Below are positions 1 through 18,277 of a stretch of DNA of 18,492 nucleotides, piece by piece. Position 1 is the stretch's first letter, and each line of letters begins with the position of its first letter. Location: the NCBI GenBank assembly GCA_036676495.1, contig JAKFCT010000013.1:1-18492 (forward strand), written 5' to 3'. Source of the DNA: Candidatus Sericytochromatia bacterium. GTDB taxonomy: Bacteria > Cyanobacteriota > Sericytochromatia > S15B-MN24 > UBA4093. The notes beneath the pieces are model-generated. The model made no database searches. It saw only the letters and a list, made by a program, of their open reading frames with translations, and was not told where the DNA came from. The position numbers and the translations under genes are program-made.

Positions 1-82
1 CCTGGCTTCCGTCCTCTCGGCCGTCTCCAGGAACCTGGTGTACGCGCTCGACGCGGTTCGCCGTCAAAAGGAAGGCGCCTAG
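1..82 (+). CDS. rplJ: 50S ribosomal protein L10, C-terminal fragment (5'-truncated by window)
   Basis: Frame from nt 2 reads LASVLSAVSRNLVYALDAVRRQKEGA-stop (TAG 80-82), matching the C-terminal L12-binding helix of L10. It lies directly upstream of rplL. Not in the ORF track. Confidence 0.9.
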   Translation, partial: LASVLSAVSRNLVYALDAVRRQKEGA

Positions 83-150
83 CGCCACGTCCCGGCCTCC
101 GGCCTTGGGATTTGTCTGCAACATCATTTGACCGGCCCCGCCGGTTTTTA

Positions 151-158
151 AAAGGAGA
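151..158 (+). promoter_or_regulatory. Shine-Dalgarno site of rplL
   Basis: AAAGGAGA lies 8 nt before the ATG at 167 and is preceded by a U/A-rich stretch. Confidence 0.85.
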
Positions 159-166
159 TTGAATCA

Positions 167-553
<387 letters not shown>

Positions 554-611
554 GATCGGCGGCGCGTCCGGCGCGTCGATTCCTCGACTTCCCGGATGCA
601 CTGAAGCGTGG

Positions 612-644
612 GAGGCCCGGCCATTGGCCGGGCCTCTTGCCTTT
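612..644 (+). terminator. Intrinsic terminator of the rplJL transcript
   Basis: Perfect 11-bp stem GAGGCCCGGCC (612-622)/GGCCGGGCCTC (626-636) with loop ATT, followed by TTGCCTTT (interrupted U tract). Confidence 0.75.
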
Positions 645-671
645 ACAGCCTGTCCCGGCCCCCCGTATAAT
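642..671 (+). promoter_or_regulatory. Sigma70-type promoter for the TPR-barrel-tonB operon
   Basis: TTTACA (642-647), an 18-nt spacer and a consensus TATAAT (666-671) in a high-GC background, about 45 nt upstream of the TPR start. Confidence 0.65.
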
Positions 672-713
672 GAGGCTGCCTGTATTGGCGCCCCCCCGAA
701 CCGCAAAACGAGG

Positions 714-3700
714 ATGGGCCCGTTGTTTACCACCCCTGAGAAACTTCCGAAATTCCTATCCTTGTCCTTGGCGCTTTCCTTCGCCCTCTGGACCGTCCCC
801 GCCACGCCCGTCCTCGCCGCGGAGCTGTCCTGGCGGCGCATCGAGCAGCTCATCGACGCCCGCGCCTACTCGGTCGCGCGCCTGGAGCTCGCCACCCATC
901 TTTCCTCCCTGAAGGGGGACGACCTCCAAGCCGCCCGCTACTGGCTCGGCTTCGTCGAACGCCGTCTCGGCAACCCCGATGGCGCCGAAGCCGCCCTGGC
1001 CAAGGTCTATCCGCGCAGCCTCTATTACCCCAAGGCCCGCCTCGAATTGTCGCGCCTCCTGATCGCCGAGAACCGTATCCCCGAAGGCCTCGACGTCCTC
1101 AAGCGCCTCATCCCCGAACTCACCGGCGAGCAGCGCGACGACGTCCGCCAGACCTACGCCGACCTGCTTTTCGCCCAGGGCAAGATCTTCGAATCCATCG
1201 ACCCGTACCGCGAGCTGGCCGACCGGGGCCTCACGCCCAAGCGCCGCGAGCATGCCGCGTATGCGCTCGGCTGGGCCTACGACAAGCTGGAGAACCCCGC
1301 TCGGGCCATCTGGAGCTGGAAGGAGGCCCTGCGCCTCTACCCAGGAAGCGCGCATGCCACGGCAGCCCGAACGGCGCTCGCCAACCAGTACGTCAAGCTC
1401 GGCAAGCCCCTGCTGGCTTCCGACGTCCTCCGGGGCTTCCCCAAGGAGATCTTCACGGGCGACCTGAAGGCGCGGGCCGAGTACCTGGCCGGCGAGGGCT
1501 ACGCCCAAGGGGGGAACTGGAAGATGGCGATCGTCGCCTACTCCCAGGTTCCCGCCGGCACCAAGTTCAGCGACGAAGCCGCCTACGGCCTGGCTTACGC
1601 TCGCTGGCAAGCCGGAGACGCGACTCGCGCCTCCAAGGACCTCGAGGCCTGGCTCGCATCGAACCCCAAGAGCCCGACGCGTCCCGCGGCCCTCTATGCG
1701 CTCGGTCGGATTCGCGAGGAAGCCGGCAAACTCGACGAGGCCGCCAAGTGGTACGCCCAGGCTGCCGTCCTTCCGGCTGCCGCGCCCGCCGCAGAGGCCC
1801 GAAACCCCTGGGCCGAAGCCGCAATCTACCAGGGTGCCCGTCTGAGCTTCAATCGTGGCCAGCATGCCGAGGCGCTGCGCCTGGCGAAGGCCCTCACCGA
1901 GAAGTACCCGGGCGGCCGCTTCGAGGGGCCCGCGCGCTGGATTGCCGCGGAGTGCCTGCTGGCGCTCAAGCAGTTCGACGCCGCCATCTCGGCCTATGCG
2001 TCGCTTGCCAAGGAAGTCGCCGATCTCGGTTTCCTCGACGCGAAGGGGGACTCGGTCACCTTCCGGCTCGGCCTGGCCCATGTGCGCGCCGGGGACTACA
2101 CCGCCGCCGTCGGCTACCTCGCGCAGGTCGCGGGCAGCCCCCGATACGGGGAGGAAGCCACCTTCTGGATGGCGGAAGCCCTCTACCGCTCGGGCAGCAT
2201 AGAGGAGGCGCGCGACACCTACGAGGCCTTCCTCCAGCGTTACCCCAAATCGGCGCGGGCTGGTTCGGCGGCCTACGGGGCGGCCTGGTGCGCGTACCGA
2301 CAGGAGAAATGGGACGTGGCCCGCGCGGGCTTCAAGCGTGCCGCCTCGCTGCTCGTGAACTCCAGCACCGAGGTCGTGACCCTCAAGCAGGACGCGCTTT
2401 ATCGTCTGGGTGTGCTCTCCGCCAATGCCCATGACTGGTCTGGGGCGCAGAGCGCCTTCAGCCAGCTCCTGAAGCTGAGTCCGGATGCCGAGCAAGCCGC
2501 CGAGGCCCGGTTCCAGGTCACGTACGCTGCTTACCGCATCGGACGCCTGGAAGAGGCCGTCATCGGGCTCGAGGATTTTCTGGCCCAGCACCCCAAGCAC
2601 GCGCGATCGGCCTCAGCACGCTCGACGCTGGGTCAAGCGCTCTTCCGGCTCGGCAAGTTCGAGGCGGCGGTCAGCGCCTTCCAGGGAGTCCTGAGCGATC
2701 CCAACGCCACCCCGGAAGCCCTTCTGGACGCCCGCTCGCGGATCGGCGCTGCCAGCTTCAACGGGGGGGACCTCGACCAGGCCATCGCCACCTACCGGGC
2801 CCTCTTGAAGGATGCCTCGGGATCGGCCGAGGTTCGGGCGCAGATCCTGCAGCCCCTGGCGCAGGCCGAACTCGCTCGCGGCAACCTGTCGGAGGCCCGC
2901 CAGATCGCCTCGGAAGAGGCCTCCGGCTCCCTCTGGAGCGGAGATATCCTGGGCAAGGTCGGCCAGGCCTTCCTCGACAAGGGGCAGCCCAAGGATGCCT
3001 TGCTGGCGCTGGAGGCGATCCCCACGCCCACCCTCGAACAGCGTTACCTGCTTTACAAGGCGCGCAAGGCCGGCGGGGACCTCAATGGGGCCCTGGCGCT
3101 CCTCAAGACGATCGCTGCGGAGCCCGGTCCCCAGCAGCCCTCGTGGCTTTACGAGCTGGGAGAAGCGCAGGCCGATCGCGGCAACTTGGACGAAGCCAAG
3201 GCGGCGTGGGATGACCTGGCCAAGCGTCATCCCGGTCATGCGTTGGCCTCTAAGGCCCAGGTGAACCTGGCCCAGGCCTATCTGAAGGCGGGTCAGGAGA
3301 AGACGGCGCTGACGACCTACGAGCTGATCGCCAAGCGTTTCGCCGCGGATACCCCCCTGGCGCGAGCCGCCTGGATGCGGATCGGGCAGCTTCGCCTCAA
3401 GCACGGGCAGCACTCCGAGGCCGCTCATGCCTACCGTCAGGCCGAGCGACTCAGCGAGAAGGGCTCGGGACCGGCGGTGCAGGCGCGCTACTGGCTGGGG
3501 TATACCATGGTGGCCTCCAAGCGTTACGAGGATGCCGTCAAGGAGCTGCAGTCGCTCAGCGTTTCTCCCGAAGCGGGGCTGGAGTGGCAAGCGCTCGCCT
3601 GGCTCAAGCAGGGTGAAGCCCTCGAGCAGTTGCGCCGGTGGAAGGAGGCCGAGAAGGTGTACGAAAAGCTCATCGCCGCCGCGGGGCTTCCCGCCACCGA

Positions 3701-3764
3701 GAAGCGGGAGGCCAAGGCGCGCCTGGACTGGATTGCCAAGAACGTCAACGGGAGGCGGCCATGA
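714..3764 (+). CDS. Large exported tetratricopeptide-repeat protein (~1015 aa; CpoB/BamD-like TPR units)
   Basis: Start is ATG 714 or TTG 723 (GAGG SD at 710-713); the ORF-track start at 450 overlaps rplL and is rejected. Sec-type signal peptide KLPKFLSLSLALSFALWTVPATPVLA-AE. The remainder is helical repeats (ARYWLG, AAYALGWAY, ALYALG, ATFWMAEALY, ALYRLG) with YPxS-type loops (LRLYPGS, EKYPGG, QRYPKS, QHPKH, RHPGH). Confidence 0.9.
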   Translation: MGPLFTTPEKLPKFLSLSLALSFALWTVPATPVLAAELSWRRIEQLIDARAYSVARLELATHLSSLKGDDLQAARYWLGFVERRLGNPDGAEAALAKVYPRSLYYPKARLELSRLLIAENRIPEGLDVLKRLIPELTGEQRDDVRQTYADLLFAQGKIFESIDPYRELADRGLTPKRREHAAYALGWAYDKLENPARAIWSWKEALRLYPGSAHATAARTALANQYVKLGKPLLASDVLRGFPKEIFTGDLKARAEYLAGEGYAQGGNWKMAIVAYSQVPAGTKFSDEAAYGLAYARWQAGDATRASKDLEAWLASNPKSPTRPAALYALGRIREEAGKLDEAAKWYAQAAVLPAAAPAAEARNPWAEAAIYQGARLSFNRGQHAEALRLAKALTEKYPGGRFEGPARWIAAECLLALKQFDAAISAYASLAKEVADLGFLDAKGDSVTFRLGLAHVRAGDYTAAVGYLAQVAGSPRYGEEATFWMAEALYRSGSIEEARDTYEAFLQRYPKSARAGSAAYGAAWCAYRQEKWDVARAGFKRAASLLVNSSTEVVTLKQDALYRLGVLSANAHDWSGAQSAFSQLLKLSPDAEQAAEARFQVTYAAYRIGRLEEAVIGLEDFLAQHPKHARSASARSTLGQALFRLGKFEAAVSAFQGVLSDPNATPEALLDARSRIGAASFNGGDLDQAIATYRALLKDASGSAEVRAQILQPLAQAELARGNLSEARQIASEEASGSLWSGDILGKVGQAFLDKGQPKDALLALEAIPTPTLEQRYLLYKARKAGGDLNGALALLKTIAAEPGPQQPSWLYELGEAQADRGNLDEAKAAWDDLAKRHPGHALASKAQVNLAQAYLKAGQEKTALTTYELIAKRFAADTPLARAAWMRIGQLRLKHGQHSEAAHAYRQAERLSEKGSGPAVQARYWLGYTMVASKRYEDAVKELQSLSVSPEAGLEWQALAWLKQGEALEQLRRWKEAEKVYEKLIAAAGLPATEKREAKARLDWIAKNVNGRRP

Positions 3765-5407
3765 GGATCGCGCATCGCCTGAGCGCGGCGCTCGGCCTTT
3801 CCCTGTCGCTTCTGGTCGTACCCGGACTTCCGGCGTGGGCGCAAGGCGCGGCCGAGGCGGACAAACCGATTTCTCCGAAAGCGCCCGCCAAGACGCAGGC
3901 CGAGCCGCGCGCTGCCGAAAAGTCGGTGGACAAGCTTCCGGTGGACCTGCCTTCGGTCATCATCCGGGGCGAGGACGAGACGGCGGCTCCCCTGAAGGGC
4001 GGAGTCAAGGTGACCCCGCTCGACCCCAAGGCTCCCCTCTCCGAGTTGCCGGCGGCGCCCAGCGCCAAGGCTCCCGGCGCGCTCGAGCTGGCGATCGAGA
4101 ACCTCTTGCCCAACCTGACTCCCCCGCCGGAGAGCATGCCTTTGCCGCGGAAGGACTGGACCGAGCTTCAGCTCGGCCTGGGCGGCCTCTACGAACTGGG
4201 CCTCTTCCATGGCCGCGAGATCGCGGGAGCCGTGACCGAGAGCCAGCTCGCCATCGATTCGGCCATGCCCTGGATGCGCGCGCGCCTCGGGATCGACGCG
4301 ACCTGGAACCTCGCCACGGCGGGCCTGGGCGTCCGCCACTACCAGGAAGACCGCGCGCCCGGCGAGCGCCTCATGATCCAAAGCATGGACCTGGGGGGCA
4401 ACTGGCAACGTGATGACTTGTTGACCGAGGGCTCGCTCGAGTTCGGTCGGGTCGTCGTGCCAGCCACCACCGGGAACGGCCGCGCGCCGGACGGGGATAC
4501 CTGGACCCGCGCCGTCGTGGCCGGAGCGCTCTGGAAGCCCCAGATTCACCCGGATCACGTCTCGGAGCTCTCGGCTTCGCTCGGCCATCGCGAGACGGAG
4601 CGCCGCTCGGATCCGACGGTATACCTCCGGGCCTTCGATCACTGGACTCTGAACCCCAAGTGGAGCGTGGAGGCCGGCCTGGGGGGAGGTCTCTTCGTGG
4701 GGATGCCCGTCCTGGACCCCTTGGCGCGTTTGAGCTATCGTCCCGACGACCCGACGGAGATCAGCGTCGGCCTCACCAGCGGCAGTGAGATGCCGGGATT
4801 CGAGAGCCTCTACCTCTCGCGCCGGTTGTCGGAGGGCAATGGCGGCCTCTTGCCGCAGCGCTCGACGATCATCGCGAGCCTCAGCGGGTCCCATCGCCTC
4901 AACGACCTCTGGTACGCCACGGCCGAGCTGGGTTACCAGCAGATCGATCGGTTCATCTTCTGGGAGGATGGCAACCAGGACGGCCTCTGGAGACCCGTGA
5001 ACACGGCCCTGGGCGCGGCCCAGGACGTCTGGAACGCGCAGTTCTCGGCCCGCTACCAGATCGGCATGACGGGTTCGCAGCGCTTCCATTACCGGATCCG
5101 GTCGGCGCAGCCGCTGGGCCTGGTGGTGCAGGAAGCCGGAGCGGTCCACCAGCGGACGCTGATCCCGGATCGGCTGACCATGGAGGCGGGGGCGGCGATC
5201 GCCCTCGACCAGCTCGGCGCCGCCCAGGCCGTTTCCGCGAGCTCGGGCTGGCAGATCCTCGCCAACGCCGGGTTGAACTACCGCCTCAACGAGCGCATCG
5301 GCCTCTACGCCAAGCTTCAGGACCTGCCGCTCGCGGTGCGTCCGCCGAGCCCCAATTACTACGCCCCCTTCGGCCTCGCGCTCATCGGGGCGACGGTGGA
5401 GTTCTAG
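3761..5407 (+). CDS. Outer-membrane beta-barrel protein, TonB-dependent-receptor-like (548 aa), apparently lacking a plug domain
   Basis: ATG 3761 overlaps the TPR stop (ATGA) and has a GGAGG SD. Signal peptide ends AWA-Q. TonB-box-like DLPSVIIRG, about 22 amphipathic strands by eye, TBDR-like motifs MPGFESLY...GNGGLLPQRS and LNYRLNERIGLYAKLQDL, and C-terminal Phe (GATVEF). Confidence 0.75.
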   Translation: MRIAHRLSAALGLSLSLLVVPGLPAWAQGAAEADKPISPKAPAKTQAEPRAAEKSVDKLPVDLPSVIIRGEDETAAPLKGGVKVTPLDPKAPLSELPAAPSAKAPGALELAIENLLPNLTPPPESMPLPRKDWTELQLGLGGLYELGLFHGREIAGAVTESQLAIDSAMPWMRARLGIDATWNLATAGLGVRHYQEDRAPGERLMIQSMDLGGNWQRDDLLTEGSLEFGRVVVPATTGNGRAPDGDTWTRAVVAGALWKPQIHPDHVSELSASLGHRETERRSDPTVYLRAFDHWTLNPKWSVEAGLGGGLFVGMPVLDPLARLSYRPDDPTEISVGLTSGSEMPGFESLYLSRRLSEGNGGLLPQRSTIIASLSGSHRLNDLWYATAELGYQQIDRFIFWEDGNQDGLWRPVNTALGAAQDVWNAQFSARYQIGMTGSQRFHYRIRSAQPLGLVVQEAGAVHQRTLIPDRLTMEAGAAIALDQLGAAQAVSASSGWQILANAGLNYRLNERIGLYAKLQDLPLAVRPPSPNYYAPFGLALIGATVEF

Positions 5408-6166
5408 ATGTCCGAACGCCCGATTAGCCTGACGGCCTCCGTGGCCCTTCACGCCCTCCTCTTGCTCGTGGGCATCTTCACCTGGCAGACGACGGTCGAG
5501 GAGCCCATCAGCGAGCCCGTGGAACTGGTCGACCTGCCCTGGACGGCGCCCGGTGCCGGCGAGAGCGATCGCCCCGCCCCCGGCAAGCCGCGTCCCCAGA
5601 GTCAGGCCGTCCCCAAGCCGGAGGCCCCGGCGCCGCGCGAGCGCATCGACACTCCGACGAAGGCGGCCGTCACGCAGGCCCCCAAGGTCAAGACTCCGGC
5701 CAAGACGGAGCCCAAGCCCGACCTCGACGCCCTCCTCGAGGAGCGCCTCAAGGATCGTCAGGAAAAGGAAGCCAAGCGCCTCGGCGAGCTGGCGTCGAGC
5801 GACCTCAGCTCGGTGGTCGGCACCGGCAAGGCCCCGGAATCCGGTGGCCCCTTGCAGGAAGGCTCGGTCAACTCCGGGAGCGGCATGCGCGGAGAGCTGG
5901 GCAAGCGCGGCATCCTCACGAAGGTCCATCCCGAGTACCCGTCCTTCGCCAAGCGCCAGGGAATCGAGGCCGACGTCACCCTCCGGGTCTGGGTCAGCCC
6001 CCGCGGCGGCGTGAGCCGGGTGGAGGTGGTCAAGCTCTCGGGGACCCCGGAGCTGGATCGCCGGGCCATGGAGGCGCTCAAGCAGTGGAAGTTCGCGCCC
6101 CTGCCGGATGAGATCGAGCCCGTCACCCAGTGGGGGGAGATCACCCTTCACTACCGCCTGGATTAG
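5408..6166 (+). CDS. tonB: Energy transducer TonB family protein
   Basis: N-terminal TM helix with S-x3-H (TASVALHALLLL), Pro/Lys-rich spacer, and TonB C-terminal domain PEYPSFAKRQGIEADVTLRVWV...SGTPELDRRAMEALKQWKFAP. The ATG directly follows the upstream TAG. Confidence 0.92.
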   Translation: MSERPISLTASVALHALLLLVGIFTWQTTVEEPISEPVELVDLPWTAPGAGESDRPAPGKPRPQSQAVPKPEAPAPRERIDTPTKAAVTQAPKVKTPAKTEPKPDLDALLEERLKDRQEKEAKRLGELASSDLSSVVGTGKAPESGGPLQEGSVNSGSGMRGELGKRGILTKVHPEYPSFAKRQGIEADVTLRVWVSPRGGVSRVEVVKLSGTPELDRRAMEALKQWKFAPLPDEIEPVTQWGEITLHYRLD

Positions 6167-6226
6167 CGCGGGCCGACGGTTCGGCTCCTGAAGAATCGGA
6201 TTGCCCTTTAGGGTATAAGGCCTTTG

Positions 6227-8194
6227 ATGAAAGACACCGTTCAGCACCTCCTCTATACGTCCAGCGCCAACCTCAACCTCGATATCCTGCGCTCGCTCGA
6301 GGAGCGGGGTATCACCTGGCGGGTCATCGACCACCTGGGCGAAATCAGCGAGGATGCGAGCTATGGCCCGAAGATCCTCCTGCTCGATCGACACTTGATC
6401 CAGCAGCATACTCCCAATGACCTTCATCGCCTCCAGGAGGACTGGGGGCCGGACGGGGTCTTCGTCTGCTCCTACCCCGAGGGTGAGGATCCGCCGCATG
6501 TCCCGGACGACCTGCTCTGGGGCTTTCTGCGCGAGCCCTATCACGGTCAGGCGTTCACCAAGTTCGTCAACAACGCCTTCCTCTTCATCCTCGGTCAGAT
6601 GGAGAACGAACGCTCGCGGGCCGAGATCAAGGACTATGCCATCAAGCTCCAGGAGCTCAACCGGATCGGTATCGCCCTCTCCTCGGAGCGCGAGCCGGAG
6701 CGCCTGCTGGAGCTGATCCTCTCCAAGAGCCGGGAGATCACCAACTCCGATGCCGGCAGCCTCTTCCTGGTCGAGACCACGCCAGACCAGGATAAGCGCC
6801 TGCGCTTCAAGCTGACCCAGAACGACTCGGTCCCCTTCGAGTTCACGGAGATCACGCTGCCCATCCGGACGTCGAGCCTGGTGGGCTACGTGGCCCTCAC
6901 GGGCCAGGCGCTGAACCTTCCGGACGTCTACGAGATTCCCCGGGATGCGGAATACGGTTTCGACCAATCTTTCGACCGGAGGACCGGCTACCGGACTCGC
7001 TCGGTGCTCACCATCCCGATGAAGAACCGCAACGACGAGACCATCGCCGTGCTGCAGCTCATCAACCGCAAGCGCCGCCGAGATCTGCGTTTGACGGATG
7101 CGCGGCTCGCCACGAGCGGAGTCGTTCCGTTCGACGCGATGTCGGAAGAGCTGGCCAGCTCCCTGGCGAGCCAGGCGGCCGTCTCGATCGAGAACAACAT
7201 CCTCTACCAGAGCATCGAGGGCCTCTTCGAGGGCTTCGTGAACGCGTCGGTCACCGCGATCGAGTCGCGCGATCCGACCACCTCGGGCCACTCCGCCCGG
7301 GTCGCCAGCCTGGCGGTGGCGCTCGCGGAGGAGGTCGACCGCCTCGACGCGGGCCCGTTCCGGGAGCTGCGCTTCAGCCGCGAGCAGATCCGGGAGCTGC
7401 GCTACGCATGCCTGCTGCACGACCTCGGGAAGGTCGGCGTGCGCGAGCAGGTCCTGGTGAAGGCCAAGAAGCTCTACCCCCATGCGCAGGAGCTGATCAA
7501 GGCCCGCTTCGACTTCGTCAAGAAGGCGCTGGAAGCCGAGTTCACGGGCAAGAAATTGAGCTTCCTGCTGGAGCATGGGCGGGAGCGTTACCTCGAGTCT
7601 CTGGGGATCTTCGATGCGGACCTGCGCGCCGAGCTGGAGGCCATCGACGACGCCTGGACCACCATCCTGTCCGCGAACGAGCCGACGGTCCTCGAGGAGG
7701 GAAGCTTCCTGCAACTGCTCGAGATCGCGCAGCGCAGCTACCGGGATATCGACGGGCATACCTGCAACCTGTTGACGCCGTCGGAGGTGAAGCAGCTCTC
7801 GGTGCGCCGTGGCAGCCTGGACGAGGACGAGCGGCTGGAGATCGAGAGCCACGTCACGCATACCTTCCGGTTCCTCGCCCAGATTCCCTGGACCCGGGAT
7901 CTGGCGAAGGTGCCCGAGATTGCCTACATGCATCACGAGAAGCTGAACGGGAAGGGGTATCCCAACCGTTTGCCTGGGCCGGCGATTCCGGTCCAGTCGA
8001 AGATGATGGCGATCGCCGACATCTACGATGCCCTCACGGCGAGCGATCGCCCCTACAAGAAAGCCGTCCCACTCGCCAAGGCCCTGGATATCCTGCGCTT
8101 CGAAGCTCGCGACCAGCACATCGACCATGAGCTGCTCACGATCTTCATCGAGCACCGGATCTTCGAGCGGGGCCGCGTCCTGAATCCGTCCTGA
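6227..8194 (+). CDS. GAF- and HD-GYP-domain cyclic-dinucleotide phosphodiesterase with a degenerate receiver-like N-terminus
   Basis: Start is ATG 6227 or TTG 6224. GAF region DAGSLFL...FDRRTGYRTRSVLTIPMKN...VLQLINRK. HD-GYP motifs ESRDPTTSGHSARV, LLHDLGKVGV, HHEKLNGKGYP and IADIYDALTASDRPYKK. Confidence 0.92.
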   Translation: MKDTVQHLLYTSSANLNLDILRSLEERGITWRVIDHLGEISEDASYGPKILLLDRHLIQQHTPNDLHRLQEDWGPDGVFVCSYPEGEDPPHVPDDLLWGFLREPYHGQAFTKFVNNAFLFILGQMENERSRAEIKDYAIKLQELNRIGIALSSEREPERLLELILSKSREITNSDAGSLFLVETTPDQDKRLRFKLTQNDSVPFEFTEITLPIRTSSLVGYVALTGQALNLPDVYEIPRDAEYGFDQSFDRRTGYRTRSVLTIPMKNRNDETIAVLQLINRKRRRDLRLTDARLATSGVVPFDAMSEELASSLASQAAVSIENNILYQSIEGLFEGFVNASVTAIESRDPTTSGHSARVASLAVALAEEVDRLDAGPFRELRFSREQIRELRYACLLHDLGKVGVREQVLVKAKKLYPHAQELIKARFDFVKKALEAEFTGKKLSFLLEHGRERYLESLGIFDADLRAELEAIDDAWTTILSANEPTVLEEGSFLQLLEIAQRSYRDIDGHTCNLLTPSEVKQLSVRRGSLDEDERLEIESHVTHTFRFLAQIPWTRDLAKVPEIAYMHHEKLNGKGYPNRLPGPAIPVQSKMMAIADIYDALTASDRPYKKAVPLAKALDILRFEARDQHIDHELLTIFIEHRIFERGRVLNPS

Positions 8195-8195
8195 C

Positions 8196-8750
8196 ATGGC
8201 TGCTGCGACCGACGCCGCCATCTACCGGGCCTGCGAGGCCATCGGGGCCATGATGGAAGTCTGGGGCTTCAAGCGGGTCATGGGCATGGTCTGGGCTTAC
8301 CTCTACCTCAGCGATCGGCCCATGTCGGCGCAGGAGATCCGCGAAGGCCTCGGCATCAGCGCGGGCCTGGTCTCGATGGTCATCAACGACCTGGAGCGCT
8401 GGGGGGTGGTCCACAAGTGCACCACCCCCGGGGAGCGGCGGGAGTACTACGAGGCCGAGGCCGATATCTGGAGCCCCATCGCCAAGGTCCTGCGCGAGCG
8501 CGAGATGCAGCAGATGCAGGAGACGCTCGACCAGATGCGCGCCGCGCGCGACGTCGTGAACCGGGAAGTCCCCTCCCGGCGCCTCGATGAGCTCATCGCC
8601 GCCGGAGAGCTCACCCACCAGCTGCTCGACCAGTTCATCAACCTGGGAGTCCTCGACGTGCGCGACATCCGCTCCGTCGGGCTGGGTGTCGGCCTCACCC
8701 GGACCATGTTCCAGCTCAAGCAGCTGGGATCGCGCTCCGATTCCCGCTAG
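8196..8750 (+). CDS. GbsR/MarR-family winged-helix transcriptional regulator
   Basis: WGFKRVMGMVWAYLYLSDRPMSAQEIREGLGISAGLVSMVINDLERWGVV followed by wing GERREYYEAEADIW, typical of GbsR/OpcR-type proteins. Starts 1 nt after the HD-GYP stop. Confidence 0.88.
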   Translation: MAAATDAAIYRACEAIGAMMEVWGFKRVMGMVWAYLYLSDRPMSAQEIREGLGISAGLVSMVINDLERWGVVHKCTTPGERREYYEAEADIWSPIAKVLREREMQQMQETLDQMRAARDVVNREVPSRRLDELIAAGELTHQLLDQFINLGVLDVRDIRSVGLGVGLTRTMFQLKQLGSRSDSR

Positions 8751-9238
8751 CGGATCTGCCCCTTCACCGGAGGCGCGATCTCGGGGCGTTGACCCGTGAC
8801 CGCCCCGCGCGCCACGTCGAACATGACCCGCAGCCGACCGCCCTTCGGCTCCCAGTACTCCGCCTCGCGCGCCGTCACCTTGATCATGCAGAGATCCGAC
8901 TGCTCCGGCCCTTCCGGGAACCAGACGCGCCAGCTCTCCTTCCAGTGCTGCTTTAGGAAGTCCTTGTCCTGGACCACCTCGACGTCGCCGGTCAGCGAGA
9001 CGTAGGCGTTGTCCCGATCCCGGAAGTAGATCACTCCCGCCTTGGGGTTCGCCCGCATCTCCTCCACCTTGTCCGAGTGCAGCGCGCTCACGAACCAGAG
9101 ATCCGCATCCGGCTCGCGCTCCTGCGTCATCATCGGGCGGGCATGCAAGTAGCCGTCCCGCGTGACCGTGGTCAGCATCGCCACCGAGAATTCCTTGAGG
9201 TGCTCATGCAGCTCATCGAGCGAAAGCGTCTTGGTCAT
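8747..9238 (-). CDS. Pyridoxamine 5'-phosphate oxidase-like FMN-binding protein (general stress protein 26/YdaG type)
   Basis: Motifs VAMLTT...LHARPM, LWF...SDKVEEMRANPK, YVSLTG, WFPEGP and AEYW. Strong GGAGGGAGG SD upstream on the minus strand. Confidence 0.88.
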   Translation of the reverse strand: MTKTLSLDELHEHLKEFSVAMLTTVTRDGYLHARPMMTQEREPDADLWFVSALHSDKVEEMRANPKAGVIYFRDRDNAYVSLTGDVEVVQDKDFLKQHWKESWRVWFPEGPEQSDLCMIKVTAREAEYWEPKGGRLRVMFDVARGAVTGQRPEIAPPVKGQIR

Positions 9239-9269
9239 CTCATCCTCCCTCCGAATCCCCCCTCACCCT

Positions 9270-9302
9270 AGCAAGGAGCCCCTCCGAGGACATCGGAGGG
9301 GC
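9270..9302 (-). terminator. Hairpin, probable terminator of the lipoprotein gene
   Basis: Perfect 10-bp stem GCCCCTCCGA (9278-9287)/TCGGAGGGGC (9293-9302) with a 5-nt loop, about 30 nt past the lipoprotein stop. The U tract on the minus strand is weak (TCCTTG). Confidence 0.55.
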
Positions 9303-9330
9303 GGACTCGAATTGGCGGAGATTTTGCTCG

Positions 9331-10065
9331 CTAGCCCGGCATCGAGACGAAGGCGAAGCCCGTGTTGAGCTTGAAGACGCCCGCTCCCACGTAGCTGAGT
9401 CCCGGGGTCTTGGCCGCGTTCTTCGGCCCTTCCACGTTCAGCTGCTTGACGATCTCCTCGCGGGTCTTCTTGCGGATATCCCCGCCGAAAAGCCGCGCCA
9501 GCGGATCGAAGCCCGAAACCTCGCCCTTCACGCTCTCATCGGGCTGGTCGATCCAGACCATCCCCTCGCGATCCAGGTAGACCGCGAAGTCGAAGCTCAC
9601 CGCGATGTTATGCCCCTGGTAGTCCACGATGCCGCTGCAGCGCAAGGTCTTGCCAATGCGCGTCACGGTGATGCCCTTGGGCATGTTCGGCTTGAGGTTC
9701 TTTTCCAGCTCCGCGACCACCGTGTCCAGGACCTGCATGCGCAGCTTCGCACGCTCGATCTCGGTGGCGGGATCGTTGCTGCCCATGCCGTAGGTCGAAA
9801 GGTAATGGTTGATGATGTTGGCCGCTTCGCGCGGGTAGGTGCGCTTCACCCAGCTCACGAAGGGGTTCTTCATGATGTCGTTGGACGCCCCTGCCGGCTC
9901 TTCCACCCGGTTGTAGACCGGAGTGGGCGGAGCTTTCTTGGGCTGGGTCGCCGTCGGGGCCGAGCCGCAACCCAAGAGCCCGAAGGCCAGGACGGCCAGC
10001 AAACCGAGCCGGACCATGGCGGAAGACCTCCCGGCAAGGGGCTTTTCTGCAGCCTCGTTACGCAT
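9331..10065 (-). CDS. Hypothetical lipoprotein
   Basis: Hydrophobic stretch with lipobox LAFGLLG-C, followed by a Pro/Thr-rich tether and a globular domain I do not recognise. GGAGA SD upstream; an alternative start at MVRLG is possible. Confidence 0.75.
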   Translation of the reverse strand: MRNEAAEKPLAGRSSAMVRLGLLAVLAFGLLGCGSAPTATQPKKAPPTPVYNRVEEPAGASNDIMKNPFVSWVKRTYPREAANIINHYLSTYGMGSNDPATEIERAKLRMQVLDTVVAELEKNLKPNMPKGITVTRIGKTLRCSGIVDYQGHNIAVSFDFAVYLDREGMVWIDQPDESVKGEVSGFDPLARLFGGDIRKKTREEIVKQLNVEGPKNAAKTPGLSYVGAGVFKLNTGFAFVSMPG

Positions 10066-10188
10066 GGTTCTCCGCCTTTCCGCAAAAAGATCGACCCGAG
10101 CATGGGTCCTGGCTTTACTATGGCCGTTAATCAGCCGGAACTTGGTTGTGGTAAGGTTAAATCAACTTTAATCTCGAAAGGAGGGGCC

Positions 10189-10719
10189 ATGTCCGCATCG
10201 CCCGTCGGTGGAAATCTCCGCCGGAACCTCGAACTCAAAGCCCGTTGTCCCGACCCTTCCCGCGTCCAAGCCGCCCTTCAGCGGCTCGGAGCCCAGGATT
10301 CAGGGCTCTTGATCCAGACGGACACTTACTTTCATGCGCCTCACGGCCGCCTCAAGCTGCGGGAAATCGAGGGTTGTCCGTCCCAGCTCATTGCCTACGA
10401 CCGCCCGGAGGAAGCAGCCCAGCGCATGAGCGCCTTCCGGATCACCGAGGTCACGGATGCCGACGGGCTAAAGGCCGTCCTCACGGACGCCCTGGGGCTT
10501 CGTGGCGTCGTCTCCAAGCGCCGTCGGCTCTACCTCTGGCAGGACTGCCGGATTCACCTGGACGAGGTCGAGGGTCTCGGCACCTTCCTGGAGTTCGAAG
10601 TGTTCTCCGAGGGCGACTCCTGCAGCGACTGGGATCGCATGGAGGCGCTCATGACGACGTTCGGGCTCACGGACGCGGACGCCATCCGGGCCTCCTACTC
10701 CGACCTGATGGGGTTTTGA
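10189..10719 (+). CDS. CYTH-domain protein (class IV adenylate cyclase/triphosphate tunnel metalloenzyme family)
   Basis: ATG 10189 with AAGGAGG SD; the longer ORF-track start at 9610 is rejected. Motifs NLELKAR (ExExK variant), QTDTYF, RLKLRE, KRRRLY, IHLDEVEGLGTFLEFE and SYSDL. Confidence 0.9.
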   Translation: MSASPVGGNLRRNLELKARCPDPSRVQAALQRLGAQDSGLLIQTDTYFHAPHGRLKLREIEGCPSQLIAYDRPEEAAQRMSAFRITEVTDADGLKAVLTDALGLRGVVSKRRRLYLWQDCRIHLDEVEGLGTFLEFEVFSEGDSCSDWDRMEALMTTFGLTDADAIRASYSDLMGF

Positions 10720-10773
10720 TTCGGGGCTGGGGTGAGGCGGTGGGAAAGCGACGTTTCGCTACAGCCGCGGGCG

Positions 10774-11526
10774 CTAGGCCAAGCGGTGAAATGGGGCGCG
10801 CTCGCGGGCCCGGGCGGCTTCCCAGGGAGTGAGCGCGCCGACTTCCAGGGTGATCCCCCAGGTTTCGGCCATGGCCTGGGCGATCGCCGACGCGATCCTG
10901 TCGCGCTCGGGAACCATCCCCAGCACGTCTGCCAGGCAGGTGGCGTCGTCGCCCGTCGACGGCTGGGTGAGCAGGTCCTGGATTTCCGCAGGGCGCTGGG
11001 TGAGCATGACCGCGCCGTGCTGCAGGAAGGCGCCTTCCCGGCGGGTCTGGGCGCTTCCTACCAGCTTTCGCCCCAAGGCCACGAGATCGGCCTGGGTGGC
11101 GCTCTGGAAGCAGGACGCGGAGCCCGCGCGGCTCAACTTTCCCGGGGCGATGGCGGTCGGGGCTCCCAGCCGGGCGATCGCCGTGGCGAGCACCTCGGTG
11201 ATCATGCGGTAGGTTCCCGCGACGCTCGCCGGGAAGCCCTCGGAGGCGATCACGGCGTACGTGAACTCCCCCCGGTGCAGGACCGCCCGTCCGCCGGTCG
11301 AGCGACGGACCACGGCGATGCCGGCCGCCGCGCAGGCGTCCAGGTTCACGTCGGAGAGCGGCTGGGCGTAGCCGAGGGAAAGCGCCGGAGGAGTCCAGGA
11401 GTAAAAGCGTAGCGTCGGGGGCGTGAGGCCCTGGCGATGGGATTCGAGGAGGGTTTCGTCGAGCGCCATGTTCCAGGCGGCGTCTCCCGCCGCATCGGGC
11501 AGGAGTCGCCAGGAACGGGCCGGCAT
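10774..11526 (-). CDS. Lipoate-protein ligase family protein, LipM-like octanoyltransferase (single catalytic domain)
   Basis: Motifs NMALDETLL, TLRFYSWTPPALSLGYAQ, VVRRSTGGRAVLH, CF, KLVGSAQ and LQHGAV. 250 aa with no LplA C-terminal domain. Confidence 0.88.
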   Translation of the reverse strand: MPARSWRLLPDAAGDAAWNMALDETLLESHRQGLTPPTLRFYSWTPPALSLGYAQPLSDVNLDACAAAGIAVVRRSTGGRAVLHRGEFTYAVIASEGFPASVAGTYRMITEVLATAIARLGAPTAIAPGKLSRAGSASCFQSATQADLVALGRKLVGSAQTRREGAFLQHGAVMLTQRPAEIQDLLTQPSTGDDATCLADVLGMVPERDRIASAIAQAMAETWGITLEVGALTPWEAARARERAPFHRLA

Positions 11527-12248
11527 CAGGAAAGGGGCTTGGTTGCCGAGACGAGGGCCATGGCCCCCATGGCGCGGTCGTGAACCTGGACCTCGGTGAA
11601 GCCGACGGCCTGCATGCGCTTGGCCAGCTCGCGCTGGTCGACGAAGCTGAGGTTGGACTCGGGGAGGTACTTGTAGGCATCGCGGTTGCCGCTCACGAGC
11701 CCGCCGATCAGGGGCACCACCCGGAAGGAGTAGACGTCCGCTCCCCAGCGAATGAGGCGGAAGCGGGGCTTGCCGAGATCGAGGGAGACGGCGCGGCCGC
11801 CGGGGCGGAGGACGCGGTGGATCTCGGAGAGGGCGCGGTCGAGGTCGGTGACGTTGCGCAGCCCATAGCCCACGGTCACGGCGTCGAAGGAGGCGTCCGG
11901 GAGGTCCAGGGCGGTCATGTCGCCTTGAATCCAGGTGATGGGGCGGCCTTCCAGGTCGCGATCCCGGGCGATCGCGAGCATGCCCTCCGAGAAGTCGAGA
12001 CCGACGATCTCCCCCTGGGCTCCGACGCGATCGGCCAGCAGGAAGGCGATGTCACCGGTGCCGGTGGCGAGGTCGAGGGCCTTGCCGCCGGGCGCGAGGG
12101 CCGCGAGCGCGACGACCTGACGCTTCCACTGGCGATGCGCGCCGGCGGTCATTAGGTCGTTGACGCGGTCGTAATTGGTGGCGATGGCGTCGAACATCGC
12201 CTGGACGTAGCGGCCCTTCTCGGGGGCTTGAGGCATCTGGAAGCTCAT
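11526..12248 (-). CDS. menG: Demethylmenaquinone methyltransferase (UbiE/MenG)
   Basis: True start is MSFQMPQ at 12248 (ATGA overlap with the upstream stop). Motifs VQAMFDAIATNYDRVNDLMT, SAM motif LDLATGTGD, GYGLRNV, RVLRPGG and AYKYLPES. Confidence 0.95.
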   Translation of the reverse strand: MSFQMPQAPEKGRYVQAMFDAIATNYDRVNDLMTAGAHRQWKRQVVALAALAPGGKALDLATGTGDIAFLLADRVGAQGEIVGLDFSEGMLAIARDRDLEGRPITWIQGDMTALDLPDASFDAVTVGYGLRNVTDLDRALSEIHRVLRPGGRAVSLDLGKPRFRLIRWGADVYSFRVVPLIGGLVSGNRDAYKYLPESNLSFVDQRELAKRMQAVGFTEVQVHDRAMGAMALVSATKPLS

Positions 12249-13225
12249 TTGGTGGCCGGTCCGTGCAGGCGGGCCTGCTCGCTGAGCTGGTCGAGGTAGC
12301 TTTCGAGCTCGTCGCGCGACGGGGCCTTGGGCAGCTCGTGCAGCCACTTGCGGGTGAGGGCGACCTCGGCCTCGACCTGCTCCAGGGTGAGGCGGTAGAC
12401 GTCGGGCTGGAAAAGGAAGTCCTTGAGGTCCTGGCTGAGATCCTGGGGGTACGGGGTCAGGAGGGCGCGGAGGCGCGGGCCCATCTCGGCATGATCCAGG
12501 GCCACCAGGACCGGGAGCGTGAGGTTGCCGGCCATGAGATCCTGACCCACGGGCTTGCCGAGGGTCTCGGCGTTGCTCGACCAGTCGAGCAGGTCGTCGA
12601 TCATCTGGAAGAGGCGTCCCAGGTGGTAGCCGAGCATGCGGGCGGCTTCCGCTTCGCGCTCCGAGCCGCCGCTGAGGATGGCGGCGCCTTCGCAGGCCAG
12701 CTCGAAGGGGCCCGAGGTCTTCTTGGCGACACGCTCCAGGTACTCGGTGATGCTCACGTCGAGGTTGTGCTGCTGCTCGTCCTGAAGGAGCTCGCCCTCG
12801 CAGAGACCGGCGAGCACTTCGCCCATGCGGCGGCAGAGGTGCGGGATGCCCAGGGAGGCCATCAGGATGGAGGCTTGGCTCAGGAGGTAGTCTCCGGCGA
12901 GGACGGCGACCTTTTCGCCCCACTTGGCGTGGACGGCCTCGACGCCGCGACGGACGGCGGCTTCGTCCAGGATGTCGTCATGGACGAGCGAACCCGTGTG
13001 CAGCAGCTCGACGGCGTCTCCCAGCCGGGAGTGCTCGTCTCCGACCGGGCCCGTCGGGTTGACGGCTTCGCCGACCAGGCGGACGCAGGTGGGGCGAATG
13101 CCCTTGCCGGAAGCCTTCAGGAGGTGAATCGAGGACTCGGAGAGCAGCTGATGGCGGGTCGCAATGCGCTCCGTGACGCCGATTCGGAAGGTCTTCGACG
13201 GGGTTTCTTGGGACGGCACGGTCAT
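12245..13225 (-). CDS. Long-chain trans-polyprenyl diphosphate synthase (solanesyl/octaprenyl/heptaprenyl type)
   Basis: GKGIRP, FARM LVHDDILD...RRG with small residues (G,S) at -5/-4, AVLAGDYL, GELLQ, KT, and SARM FQMIDDLLD...LGKPVGQDL..G.LTLP. Confidence 0.95.
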   Translation of the reverse strand: MTVPSQETPSKTFRIGVTERIATRHQLLSESSIHLLKASGKGIRPTCVRLVGEAVNPTGPVGDEHSRLGDAVELLHTGSLVHDDILDEAAVRRGVEAVHAKWGEKVAVLAGDYLLSQASILMASLGIPHLCRRMGEVLAGLCEGELLQDEQQHNLDVSITEYLERVAKKTSGPFELACEGAAILSGGSEREAEAARMLGYHLGRLFQMIDDLLDWSSNAETLGKPVGQDLMAGNLTLPVLVALDHAEMGPRLRALLTPYPQDLSQDLKDFLFQPDVYRLTLEQVEAEVALTRKWLHELPKAPSRDELESYLDQLSEQARLHGPATK

Positions 13226-13270
13226 GCGGGGCCTCGCTGCATGGCTGAAGAGAATGGGCGGTCGGATGCC

Positions 13271-13299
13271 ATCCTAGCACGCGCTACGGCAAGTTTCAA
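13271..13299 (-). promoter_or_regulatory. Sigma70-type promoter for the prenyl synthase-menG-lipM operon
   Basis: On the minus strand: TTGAAA (13299-13294), a 17-nt spacer and TAGGAT (13276-13271). Confidence 0.65.
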
Positions 13300-13311
13300 G
13301 ATTTCTTGAAA
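13294..13311. promoter_or_regulatory. 18-bp palindrome, candidate operator overlapping both divergent -35 boxes
   Basis: TTTCAAGA-TT-TCTTGAAA has perfect 8-bp arms and is an AT-rich island in a GC-rich genome. Confidence 0.7.
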
Positions 13312-13334
13312 GCAAAGGAAACATGCGGTAGAAT
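13306..13334 (+). promoter_or_regulatory. Sigma70-type promoter for menFDHBA
   Basis: TTGAAA (13306-13311), a 17-nt spacer and TAGAAT (13329-13334). Confidence 0.75.
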
Positions 13335-13407
13335 CCAGGGGTGATGCTTGGCCGCATGAGCTGCGGCAATGCGTTTCCGGACCTCCGTGCCCCTTGAAGG
13401 TGACCCC

Positions 13408-14814
13408 ATGCGCACTCAGACGAGCTTGCTTTCTCTCGAGGCCCGAATCGACGTCCTCGATCAGGCCTTGGAGCGGGCTCGCCGCACGGGGCGCCCCGTC
13501 CTGGTCGCCCTGGCCAGCCGTCCGGTGCGCGAGGCGCTTCGCGATCGCCTTCTCGACGCTCCCGCCGCGCCGAAACTGGCCTGGACGGACCTCTCCACCG
13601 GCTCGCGCTTCCTGGGGCTCGCACAAACCGACGTCCTGCGCGCCTTCGAGGCGGATGCCGCCTGGGAGATGCCGGACCATGCCCGGAGGCTTCTCGACGA
13701 AGCCGTCTGCGCCCCCGAGATCCGCCCCGAACTGCGCGTCTTCGGCGGCATCGCCTTCGACCCCGGCACCGCCCCCCACCCCGCTTGGCCCGATGGATCG
13801 CCCGCCCGCTTCGTCCTCCCTCAGGTCCTCGTCCACGAGCACGCGGAGGAGACCCGGATCCTCCTGACCAACTGGGCGCAGCCCGAGGACCATGCCGAGG
13901 ATTTGCTCGGGCGCTTCGAAGACGTGTTGAGGGATGTCGAGGACTGGCTGGAGGCTCCTGCTGCCGCCGTCTTGCCGTTCGCCGTGCCGGACCTTCCCGA
14001 GGGTGCCCGCGAGCGCTGGTTCGCGCAGGTTGAAGCCGCCCTATCGCACATCCGCTCCGGAGCGGTTACCAAGATCGTGCTCTCGCGAGACCTGCCGGTC
14101 CGCTCCGATGGTCCCTTTCCCATGGGGACCGTCATTCGAGGCCTGGAGGCCCTGGCGACCTCCGGGACGGTCTTCGGCTTCCAGTTCGAGCCGCACGCGG
14201 CCTTCGTGGGAGCGACCCCTGAGCTGCTGGTCTCCGTCTCGGGGGCCACGGTCCACAGCGATTGCCTGGCCGGCACCTGCAAGCGGACGGGAGACGCCGA
14301 GGAAGACGATCGCCTGGCCCTGGCCTTGCTCGCCAACGACAAGGAGCGCCGGGAGCATGAGCACGTGATCGCCGCGGTCACCGACGCCTTGGCGCCGCTC
14401 TGCGAAACCTTCGACGTCCCCGAGACGCCGACCCTCATGCGCCTTCCGACCCTCCAGCACCTCCACACTCCGGTGCAGGGCCGCCTGCTCGACGGCGTCG
14501 CGCTCGGCACGATCATCCGGAGGCTGCATCCGACGCCTGCCGTGGGAGGCACCCCGCGCCTGGAGGCCCTCGGACTCATCCGGGACCTCGAAGAGCGCCC
14601 CCGCGGCTGGTACGCCGGGGCCATCGGCTGGATCGGCTCCGAATCGGCCAAGTTCGTGGTGGGCATCCGATCCGCCATCTTGCATCCCGAAGGCGCCGTG
14701 GTCTTCGGGGGGTGTGGCATCGTCCGCGGCTCCGACCCGGCTGCCGAATGGGAGGAAACCCAGCGCAAGGCCGCCACCCTCCTCACCTTGCTCACCCAAG
14801 GAGCGTCCGAATGA
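13408..14814 (+). CDS. menF: Menaquinone-specific isochorismate synthase
   Basis: Preferred start is ATG 13408 with AAGGTG SD (alternative 13369). Chorismate-binding motifs KIVLSR, GATPELL, LAGT, KERREH, LHPTPAVGG, RGWYAG and GCGIVRGSDPAAEWEET. First gene of a men operon. Confidence 0.92.
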   Translation: MRTQTSLLSLEARIDVLDQALERARRTGRPVLVALASRPVREALRDRLLDAPAAPKLAWTDLSTGSRFLGLAQTDVLRAFEADAAWEMPDHARRLLDEAVCAPEIRPELRVFGGIAFDPGTAPHPAWPDGSPARFVLPQVLVHEHAEETRILLTNWAQPEDHAEDLLGRFEDVLRDVEDWLEAPAAAVLPFAVPDLPEGARERWFAQVEAALSHIRSGAVTKIVLSRDLPVRSDGPFPMGTVIRGLEALATSGTVFGFQFEPHAAFVGATPELLVSVSGATVHSDCLAGTCKRTGDAEEDDRLALALLANDKERREHEHVIAAVTDALAPLCETFDVPETPTLMRLPTLQHLHTPVQGRLLDGVALGTIIRRLHPTPAVGGTPRLEALGLIRDLEERPRGWYAGAIGWIGSESAKFVVGIRSAILHPEGAVVFGGCGIVRGSDPAAEWEETQRKAATLLTLLTQGASE

Positions 14815-17392: not shown

Positions 17393-17440
17393 GCGGATTC
17401 GTTCGCGTTGTTGATACCGAAACAAGGAGATACATTCGAC

Positions 17441-18274
<834 letters not shown>

Positions 18275-18277
18275 GCC

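Follow-up and report, generated by a model that had tools for sequence, protein, structure and literature searches.

An outer-membrane barrel with the predicted fold of TonB-dependent transporters and no detectable plug, encoded between a giant tetratricopeptide repeat protein and a TonB paralog in Candidatus Sericytochromatia

Results

A Three-Gene Module with an Outer-Membrane Barrel at Its Center

The DNA analyzed here (the window) is a stretch of 18,492 nucleotides from Candidatus Sericytochromatia bacterium (assembly GCA_036676495.1, contig JAKFCT010000013.1, positions 1-18,492, forward strand). Three adjoining genes on its plus strand are the subject of this work. The first encodes an exported protein of about 1017 amino acyl residues (aa), assigned to the periplasm and consisting throughout of tetratricopeptide repeats (TPR; 711-3764, recognized with Pfam and NCBIfam), the second an outer-membrane β-barrel of 548 aa that is of TonB-dependent transporter (TBDT) type and plug-less (3761-5407), and the third a TonB paralog of 252 aa (5408-6166). 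The ATG of the barrel gene (3761) and the TGA stop codon of the preceding TPR gene overlap in the sequence ATGA, and the ATG of the TonB gene (5408) begins at the base directly after the barrel stop codon. A preliminary description made from the letters of this DNA alone had let the barrel gene start at 3944. That position is the first base of the codon for D62, and the true start of the gene is the ATG at 3761.

The N-terminus of the barrel protein, MRIAHRLSAALGLSLSLLVVPGLPAWA, resembles a signal peptide when judged by eye (residues 1-27, 3761-3841, +; cleavage after AWA), and 15 of 15 complete homologous open reading frames (ORFs) begin with a comparably hydrophobic segment. A spacer rich in Ala, Lys, and Pro follows (residues 28-57, 3842-3931, +), which lacks any invariant position in the alignment, is variable in length, and shrinks to 6-8 residues in two related loci, L045 and L046. 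Alignment of homologs and comparison of loci delimit next a TonB-box-like motif, KLPVDLPSVIIRGEDE (residues 58-73, 3932-3979, +). The place of a plug is taken by a Pro-rich arm (residues 74-132, 3980-4156, +), recognizable by its composition (13 Pro, 10 Leu, and 9 Ala among 59 residues) and by predicted local distance difference test (pLDDT) values below 50. The β-barrel domain (residues 133-548, 4157-5404, +), with pLDDT values above 90 and 22 strands by superposition on BtuB, terminates in Phe. Its longest loop (residues 344-365, 4790-4855, +), defined by the AlphaFold model and the alignments, contains a short helix (347-352) and the signature P-x-F-E-x-LY ... GN-x-x-L-x-P-x-R. Numbered from the ATG at 3761, the main landmarks of the preliminary description are all present in the translation: DLPSVIIRG occupies residues 62-70, about 62 Pro/Ala-rich residues (71-132) separate it from the first strand, strands begin at W133, the C-terminus reads GATVEF, and PGFESLY, GNGGLLPQRS, YQQIDRFI, and LYAKLQDL are found at the positions given there.

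Predicted Fold of the Barrel

An AlphaFold2 model of the barrel protein, built on an alignment of 22 sequences, has a mean pLDDT of 81; residues 1-129 remain below 50, and the barrel (residues 133-547) is almost entirely above 90. A second model was obtained for the homolog from locus L045, which belongs to another family of the same order and is 24% identical; its mean pLDDT is 83, with residues 22-111 below 50 and again a confident barrel. When the PDB was searched with Foldseek, only TBDTs were among the top matches listed, for example Cir (2hdi, E 5e-12) and BtuB (1nqg, TM 0.56). VIA-align, a structure search independent of Foldseek, returned BtuB (1NQE) as best match (Z 21.2, root-mean-square deviation [rmsd] 3.2 Å over 364 residues), with residues 129-548 of the model lying on residues 133-594 of BtuB, so that the entire BtuB barrel but no part of the plug is covered. 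Next came FyuA, Cir, ShuA, and some 30 further TBDT or SusC entries. For the L045 model the corresponding values are Z 21.1 and rmsd 3.3 Å over 365 residues, with model residues 112-528 on the same BtuB region. OpdQ (Z 15.2, 6.3 Å), FimD (Z 14.5, 5.8 Å), and PapC (Z 13.5, 6.5 Å), whose strand numbers differ from that of the TBDT barrel (usher barrels such as FimD have 24 strands), fit less well. A barrel resembling that of TonB-dependent receptors, as proposed in the preliminary description, is thus borne out by Foldseek and, for two models, by VIA-align.

DSSP assigns 24 strand elements to the model, two of which are just 4-5 residues long (399-402 and 410-414), and the L045 model repeats all 24, the two shortest among them, as well as the helix that follows strand 13. 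Because the superposition on BtuB runs over the full length of the barrel and the fit to usher barrels is much worse, the barrel most probably consists of 22 strands, residues 399-402 and 410-414 being kinked continuations of strands 15 and 16; 13 strands would then precede the signature loop and nine would follow it. A reading with 24 strands was dropped because of the shortness of the two surplus elements and the whole-barrel superposition on BtuB. The earlier count of about 22 strands is therefore kept on the strength of this superposition, whereas DSSP itself lists 24 elements. The inward-facing phase of the strands is polar, with 19 Arg, 15 Glu, and 21 Gly among 152 residues, as expected for a lumen filled with water or with protein. 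All loops are short; the longest, with 22 residues (344-365), holds the densest cluster of invariant barrel residues. F548, in the position of the C-terminal aromatic residue that closes the last strand in TBDTs, is invariant in alignment A1, whose 14 sequences reach down to 36% identity, and nearly so in alignment A2.

Similarity to TBDTs at the level of sequence is faint. The Pfam barrel model PF00593 scores 15.1 bits on the protein, below its gathering cut-off of 27, and matches 8 of 22 family members at E ≤ 1 (best E 1e-8). Homology to TBDT barrels nevertheless finds support in a profile alignment by hhalign: with one canonical TBDT encoded in this genome it gives E 1.2e-4 at a probability of 56%, residues 316-548 being aligned with 397-645 of the transporter and MPGFESLYLSRR...GNGGLLPQRS being paired with FRAPDFKELL...GNPHLGPETS. 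Run against PDB sequences with a limit as loose as E ≤ 10, the family profile retrieves no TBDT, noise appearing at an E of about 1.7, and NCBIfam gives no match for the barrel protein. By these comparisons the family is very divergent; the two models have the TBDT fold, and the barrel probably descends from TonB-dependent transporters.

Absence of a Plug

A Pfam search finds no match to the Plug family (PF07715) in the barrel protein, and none of the 22 family members (0/22) matches it at E ≤ 1. About 100 mature residues are available ahead of the barrel, and in both models this stretch is disordered (pLDDT below 50) and forms no folded plug. The missing plug, which had been the central point of the preliminary description, is borne out by these results: neither a match to the Plug model nor a plug fold was detected, no strand number clearly different from 22 emerged, and the box, as described below, is conserved. 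The module holds no gene for a Plug domain alone, and the five Plug matches of the genome all lie in frames of 653-758 aa. Longer or fused forms of the barrel were not found either, which is weak evidence.

TonB-Box-Like Motif and Pro-Rich Arm

In alignment A1, 12 of 16 positions of the motif are invariant. The spacer has no invariant position among 30, the arm has 11 among 59, and the barrel has about 92 among 416. The motif is the most conserved part of the barrel protein, and its conservation goes beyond chance. Of 16 loci from 16 genomes, 15 have the consensus [ED][KR]LPx[DEQN]LPx[VI]x[VI]xG, and the 16th locus, a truncated distant relative, has LEIPDVVVEG instead. Conservation in homologs, which the preliminary description had left to be checked, is thereby established. 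The distance from the motif to the barrel, i.e., the length of the arm, is nearly constant across the 16 loci. In TBDTs the TonB box is usually located close to the mature N-terminus, and in L045 and L046 the motif lies 6-8 residues past the predicted cleavage site of the signal peptide. The five canonical Plug-bearing TBDTs of the genome start with RLDEVVVTGTR, QLEPVVVRSAR, SPQVEVATKR, MLPEVFTTGQRD, and KLAPQVVSGAR, and DLPSVIIRGED resembles these TonB boxes in kind. A predicted complex of TonB residues 160-252 (alignment A3) with barrel residues 48-100 (A1) had a score of 0.04 (mark 0.32) and weighs neither way.

TPR Protein, TonB Paralog, and Conservation of Gene Order

Along its full length the TPR protein is matched by 27 Pfam families of the TPR type. 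TIGR02795 (YbgF/CpoB) reaches 206 bits (cut-off 90.1) when summed over seven stretches, and the BamD model TIGR03302 reaches 127 bits over five. With about four times the length of the 263-position CpoB model (NF008068), the protein matches CpoB by similarity of repeats, not by orthology. Its N-terminus looks like a signal peptide by eye and has no Cys for lipidation; phmmer searches with it retrieved designed consensus TPR proteins only. A start at TTG-450 was dropped since it overlaps rplL in another frame, and ATG 711 (M88 of the listed ORF) is taken as start. Just ahead of the signal segment, the N-terminal region (711-830, +) carries TPEKLPKF, which echoes the EKLP of the barrel motif and may be a coincidence.

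Between rplL and the TPR gene a sigma-70-like promoter candidate, TTTACA-18-TATAAT (642-671, +), is recognized by its match to the consensus. It agrees with 11 of 12 hexamer positions and is the sole such site in window positions 1-8900, with 0.6 expected from shuffled sequence. An inverted repeat at 612-640, between rplL and the promoter candidate, may be the rplL terminator; it has a reverse blastn match to the spacer of a related locus (L003).

The TonB paralog comprises an N-terminal membrane helix with a conserved His, a spacer rich in Pro and Lys, and a TonB_C domain (residues 174-251; PF03544 at 70.8 bits, cut-off 24.6; TIGR01352 at 66.8 bits). H15 is invariant in the four sequences compared. 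The TolA model TIGR02794 gives 46.3 bits, below its cut-off of 59.45, whereas the TonB_C models lie above theirs.

A TPR gene is situated directly upstream of the barrel in all 15 loci that include upstream DNA, and each of the 14 loci that include downstream DNA (14/14) keeps the order TPR-barrel-TonB, even where barrel identity falls to about 24%; a 15th contig stops just past the barrel and hence does not enter the downstream count. A GAF/HD-GYP-type phosphohydrolase and a MarR-like regulator follow the module in six of these 14 loci, which all belong to family f1, and the other flanks vary, containing ribosomal proteins, a subtilase, a phosphonate ATP-binding cassette (ABC) transporter, or glycine cleavage genes. 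As flanking genes differ between families, the core of the module therefore consists of three genes. In the flanks of five related loci scanned with Pfam (L003, L004, L041, L045, and L048), no gene for substrate processing, transport, a hydrolase, or a synthase is conserved beside the module. Neither these flanks nor the window contain synthase or glycosyltransferase genes, and glycoside hydrolases adjoin the module in none of them.

Distribution

Among 401 genomes of the phylum, 47 of which belong to the class, a full-length barrel is encoded by the genome studied here (G000), in which it is a single copy, and by all but one of the 26 further genomes in its order (25/26). The single genome of sister family f7 has a weak match (1/1), and no barrel was found in families f5 (0/13) and f6 (0/6) or in the 354 genomes of the phylum outside the class. 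The family is small: 13 out of 5.8 billion clusters and 20 out of 1.84 billion representatives were retrieved, and 22 members when a profile was used. All named matches are from Candidatus Sericytochromatia bacterium, save one protein labeled Pantanalinema sp. The ESM Atlas holds look-alike clusters of 533-601 aa (scores 0.94-0.95), commonest in Spirochaetota and Rhodothermota and either unnamed or labeled 'TonB-dependent receptor-like'; they are to be taken as leads only.

A Candidate Motor for the Module

The genome has three TonB_C genes and six genes of the MotA/ExbB family. Two of the TonB_C genes (contigs C28 and C91) adjoin an ExbB-family match and a Plug-bearing TBDT. The MotA/ExbB-family match on C27 belongs to a MotA-MotB pair according to Pfam, and those on C38 and C57, each with an OmpA-like match at a distance of about 0.5-0.6 kb, resemble further pairs of the MotB type. 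An ExbB-ExbD pair near the end of contig C93 (L014 1029-2112, -) has no TonB_C match in its 3-kb locus. Because one TonB lacks a motor and one motor lacks a TonB, the C93 pair is a candidate motor for the module TonB. In the f7 genome (G136), locus L043 on contig C250 (6947-9533, -) encodes a weak relative of the barrel (E 2.5e-23) that has the motif LEIPDVVVEG and is truncated at its N-terminus where the contig ends. It is directly followed on the same strand by ExbB-ExbD, and this ExbB is 46% identical to that of C93; an ABC transporter comes next, and no TonB was detected downstream. This neighborhood ties the barrel family to a motor of the ExbB-ExbD type. An ExbB specific to module-bearing genomes was also considered and ruled out, since a match to the C93 ExbB occurs in 44 of 47 genomes of the class.

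Other Genes in the Window and in Related Loci

The module lies directly downstream of rplJ-rplL, with rplL (ribosomal protein L7/L12) at 167-553 (+). In many bacteria rplJ-rplL are followed by rpoB-rpoC. A contig from a related metagenome-assembled genome (L002) starts at the same point as the window, which suggests a shared assembly break just upstream. After the TonB gene, a phosphohydrolase with GAF and HD/HD_5 (HD-GYP-type) domains (6224-8194, +) and a MarR/CudC-like regulator (8196-8750, +) are encoded. Because this pair is kept in the six f1 loci only, it is probably a separate unit, perhaps related to cyclic di-GMP. Further downstream, a CYTH-domain protein is recognized by Pfam (9610-10719, +), and the minus strand has two ORFs for which Pfam gives no match (244 aa, 9331-10065; 337 aa, 10667-11680), with overlap among frames. 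A menaquinone-type cluster occupies 11526-18274. On its plus strand are genes for a MenF-like chorismate-binding enzyme (13369-14814), a MenD-like thiamine pyrophosphate enzyme (14712-16562), a MenH-like α/β hydrolase (16556-17392), and a MenB-like member of the enoyl-CoA hydratase family (17408-18274), and on its minus strand are those for a UbiE/MenG methyltransferase and a polyprenyl synthase. The UbiE ORF of 465 aa overlaps the synthase gene, its start being probably near 12220.

In three related loci a subtilase gene (Peptidase_S8) is found just upstream of the TPR gene (L045 12937-14175, +; L048 3312-4544, -; L004 3007-4464, +). The prodomain is fervidolysin-like in L045 and L048, the orientation is divergent in two of the three loci, and a link to the module is possible.

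Discussion

As the best reading we propose that the barrel might be the outer-membrane component of a dedicated envelope module that is driven by TonB and formed by the barrel, a TPR scaffold, and a TonB paralog, a proposal that we hold to be about evenly poised. ExbB-ExbD, encoded elsewhere in the genome on contig C93, would energize the adjoining TonB, which in turn would capture the box by strand pairing and pull on the Pro-rich arm, an element of fixed length that is probably extended. Without a plug to unfold, the load would be the barrel itself plus whatever the arm and the TPR scaffold hold, and a pull on the box would either be passed on as force, to the barrel and so to the outer membrane, or move the cargo of the arm. 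In the version that we prefer, the module would be a tether, driven by the proton-motive force, that transmits force between inner and outer membranes and would do an envelope job like that of Tol-Pal. This version is preferred because no TolB or Pal exceeds the cut-off in the lineage and because it needs no unseen component; opening of a pore is almost as likely.

The Tol-Pal system shares with the module a TonB/TolA-type arm encoded together with a TPR protein of the CpoB type, and TolB, its partner on the outer-membrane side, has a disordered N-terminal box as well. In contrast, the module has no TolB propeller, no Pal, and no peptidoglycan-binding domain, and the partner of TonB would be an integral barrel of 22 strands. 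TolB searches of the genome give nine matches, none of which exceeds the cut-off of 343 bits (best 85.7), and only one of the 47 genomes of the class exceeds it, merely by summing neighboring matches. For Pal the best score in the genome is 56.1 bits against a cut-off of 125, and both matches are those located about 0.5-0.6 kb from the MotA/ExbB-family matches on C57 and C38.

Several observations speak against a Tol-Pal-like tether or against the module as a whole. Such a tether would be expected to need a peptidoglycan-binding domain, and Pfam and NCBIfam find none in the three proteins. A pure anchor would not require a polar barrel of 22 strands, and the retention of this barrel at 24% identity, as modeled, argues that the lumen matters. 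TolB is missing throughout the class, including families f5 (0/13) and f6 (0/6), which also lack the barrel, and there is therefore no complementary pattern of the kind that replacement of Tol-Pal by the module would leave; this complementarity was tested and ruled out. Likewise, the wide occurrence of the C93-type ExbB includes equally good homologs in f5 and f6. One genome of the order (G079; 87% complete, 610 contigs) has only a weak partial match to the barrel, in a frame of 674 aa. Finally, binding of TonB to the motif is putative.

A role as a nutrient receptor is unlikely, as the barrel occurs as a single copy across the order, has no substrate genes nearby and no long loops, and is accompanied by TPR repeats of an envelope type; repeats like those of CpoB and BamD are found in factors for envelope assembly and division. 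For the same reasons of copy number, gene neighborhood, and very short loops, a force anchor fits the evidence at least as well as a pore does. A gated pore, in essence the reading of the preliminary description, is almost as likely as the tether, if less likely than not: the arm, perhaps held by the TPR protein, would lie in or under the lumen, and pulling by TonB would open a wide hydrophilic channel for a solute or a polymer. The full barrel with its polar inward face (19 Arg and 15 Glu of 152 residues), kept family-wide, speaks for such a channel, as do the constant length of the arm, whose conservation comes near that of the barrel (11/59 versus about 92/416 invariant), and a TonB box that is the most conserved element of the protein. 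There is also a partial precedent in the 'Type S' barrels of Bacteroides, which have a small or absent plug and, according to the accessible part of the preprint, serve the uptake of short fructans (bioRxiv 10.1101/2025.11.13.688124). Yet about 60 Pro-rich residues would, from their size, be too few to fill a 22-strand lumen on their own, there are no substrate-binding loops, genes for transport, hydrolases, or synthases are not conserved next to the module, and one copy throughout an order is unlike the pattern of nutrient transporters, of which this genome has five separate ones.

Giant TPR scaffolds in the periplasm combined with an outer-membrane barrel are known from exporters of polysaccharides, such as AlgK/AlgE, BcsC, PgaA, and PelB, and an export port of this type, to which TonB would have been added as energizer or regulator, would account for the translational coupling of the TPR and barrel genes. 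The f1 phosphohydrolase of the GAF/HD-GYP type, which possibly acts on cyclic di-GMP, would suit it too, and a TBDT needed for protein secretion is on record in the accessible text on Oar and PopC (PMC6434023). Nevertheless, we think this improbable. No synthase or glycosyltransferase gene is present in the window or the flanks examined, the phosphohydrolase gene is confined to 6 of 14 loci, all of f1, and no fusion of TPR and barrel was found among longer proteins, although the last point is weak evidence. The barrels of these exporters have 16-18 strands and lack a TonB box, and that of BcsC matches the second model far less well than TBDTs do (Z 14.0, rmsd 7.7 Å over 256 residues), a weak match that leaves relatedness possible.

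The plug might instead be supplied in trans, by the TPR protein, the C-terminal domain of TonB, or an unlinked protein, so that the module would be a TBDT-like transporter in two pieces. Large barrels are usually plugged, and LptE in LptD shows that a separate protein can do so, as the part of a preprint that is accessible recalls (bioRxiv 10.64898/2026.07.15.738633); the strict coupling to the TPR gene could be seen in this light. But the TPR protein is made of repeats throughout, with no Plug-like or other globular domain recognized by Pfam, the module contains no Plug-only gene, and the Plug matches of the genome are accounted for by its five frames of transporter size (653-758 aa), which makes a plug in trans quite improbable. 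That the barrel is a functionless TBDT in decay, having lost its plug, might be suspected from the sub-threshold Pfam score of 15.1 bits and from the loss of the defining domain. This is so improbable that we exclude it: frames are intact in 16 of 16 loci, full-length copies exist in all but one of the order's 26 further genomes (25/26), the predicted architecture is unchanged at 24% identity, and gene order is conserved.

With TBDTs such as BtuB (1NQE), Cir, and FyuA, the barrel shares the fold over its whole circumference, the signature P-x-F-x-x-LY...GN-x-x-L-x-P-E/R, the C-terminal Phe, a TonB-box-like strand near the N-terminus of the mature protein, and an adjoining TonB gene. Unlike them, it has no plug, its loops of at most 22 residues replace long ligand-binding ones, and it is in fixed association with the gene for a giant TPR protein. 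Type S barrels (e.g., BVU_1662) are similar in description, being shortened, escaping both PF00593 and PF07715, and having a plug that is small or absent, as here; in the accessible portion of that preprint they are natural plug-poor descendants of TBDTs that exist and function, and Bacteroides with a plug-deleted SusC remain viable (bioRxiv 10.1101/2025.11.13.688124). Going by the descriptions, the two are set apart by their surroundings, since Type S barrels are encoded in glycan-utilization clusters beside carbohydrate-active enzymes and take up short fructans, whereas the barrel described here has no such enzymes nearby and comes with a conserved box, a TonB, and a TPR protein; the term 'TonB box' never occurs in the accessible text on Type S, which mentions no dedicated TonB or TPR partner either (bioRxiv 10.1101/2025.11.13.688124). 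OEP37 of chloroplasts is also predicted to be a plug-less barrel of 22 strands, which was 'unexpected' to its authors, and is likened to our barrel by description alone (bioRxiv 10.64898/2026.07.15.738633). It is a plastid protein for which the accessible part of that preprint gives no TonB box or TonB context, and the barrel family was not found in the 354 phylum genomes that lie outside the class.

In the literature searched there is no description of a plug-less barrel with a TonB box that is accompanied by its own TonB and a giant TPR protein, and the accessible part of an account of the evolution of TolA/TonB systems does not mention such a module (PMC12204202). The module of TPR protein, plug-less barrel, and TonB would be a variant of Ton-type machinery that is undescribed in the literature searched. 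Going further, one might speculate that it represents an undescribed, multi-phylum class of envelope machines driven by the proton-motive force, existing beside Ton, which serves import, and Tol-Pal, which stabilizes the outer membrane. In such a machine a plug-less barrel of 22 strands, in the grip of a TPR scaffold of 1000 residues, would be pulled by a TonB paralog at its Pro-rich arm of fixed length instead of at a plug, the pull either drawing the outer membrane toward the inner one or opening a pore several nanometers wide; loss of the plug would then be ancient and functional rather than a result of decay. We offer this as a tentative idea that may well prove wrong.

The function ascribed to TonB is to unfold a transporter's plug. 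The barrel described here retains the handle for TonB more strictly than any other part of its sequence, yet has nothing to unfold, and a TonB of its own and a giant scaffold accompany it. Should the coupling be real, motors of the TonB type would do a second kind of work on barrels, in that they would anchor the outer membrane, pull on it, or gate a pore of great width, and the module would be a candidate machine for envelope maintenance in a lineage without Tol-Pal. As it occurs once per genome, in a set of only three genes, and has a motif that is well defined, the family offers a small and clean test case for what TonB does where there is no plug.

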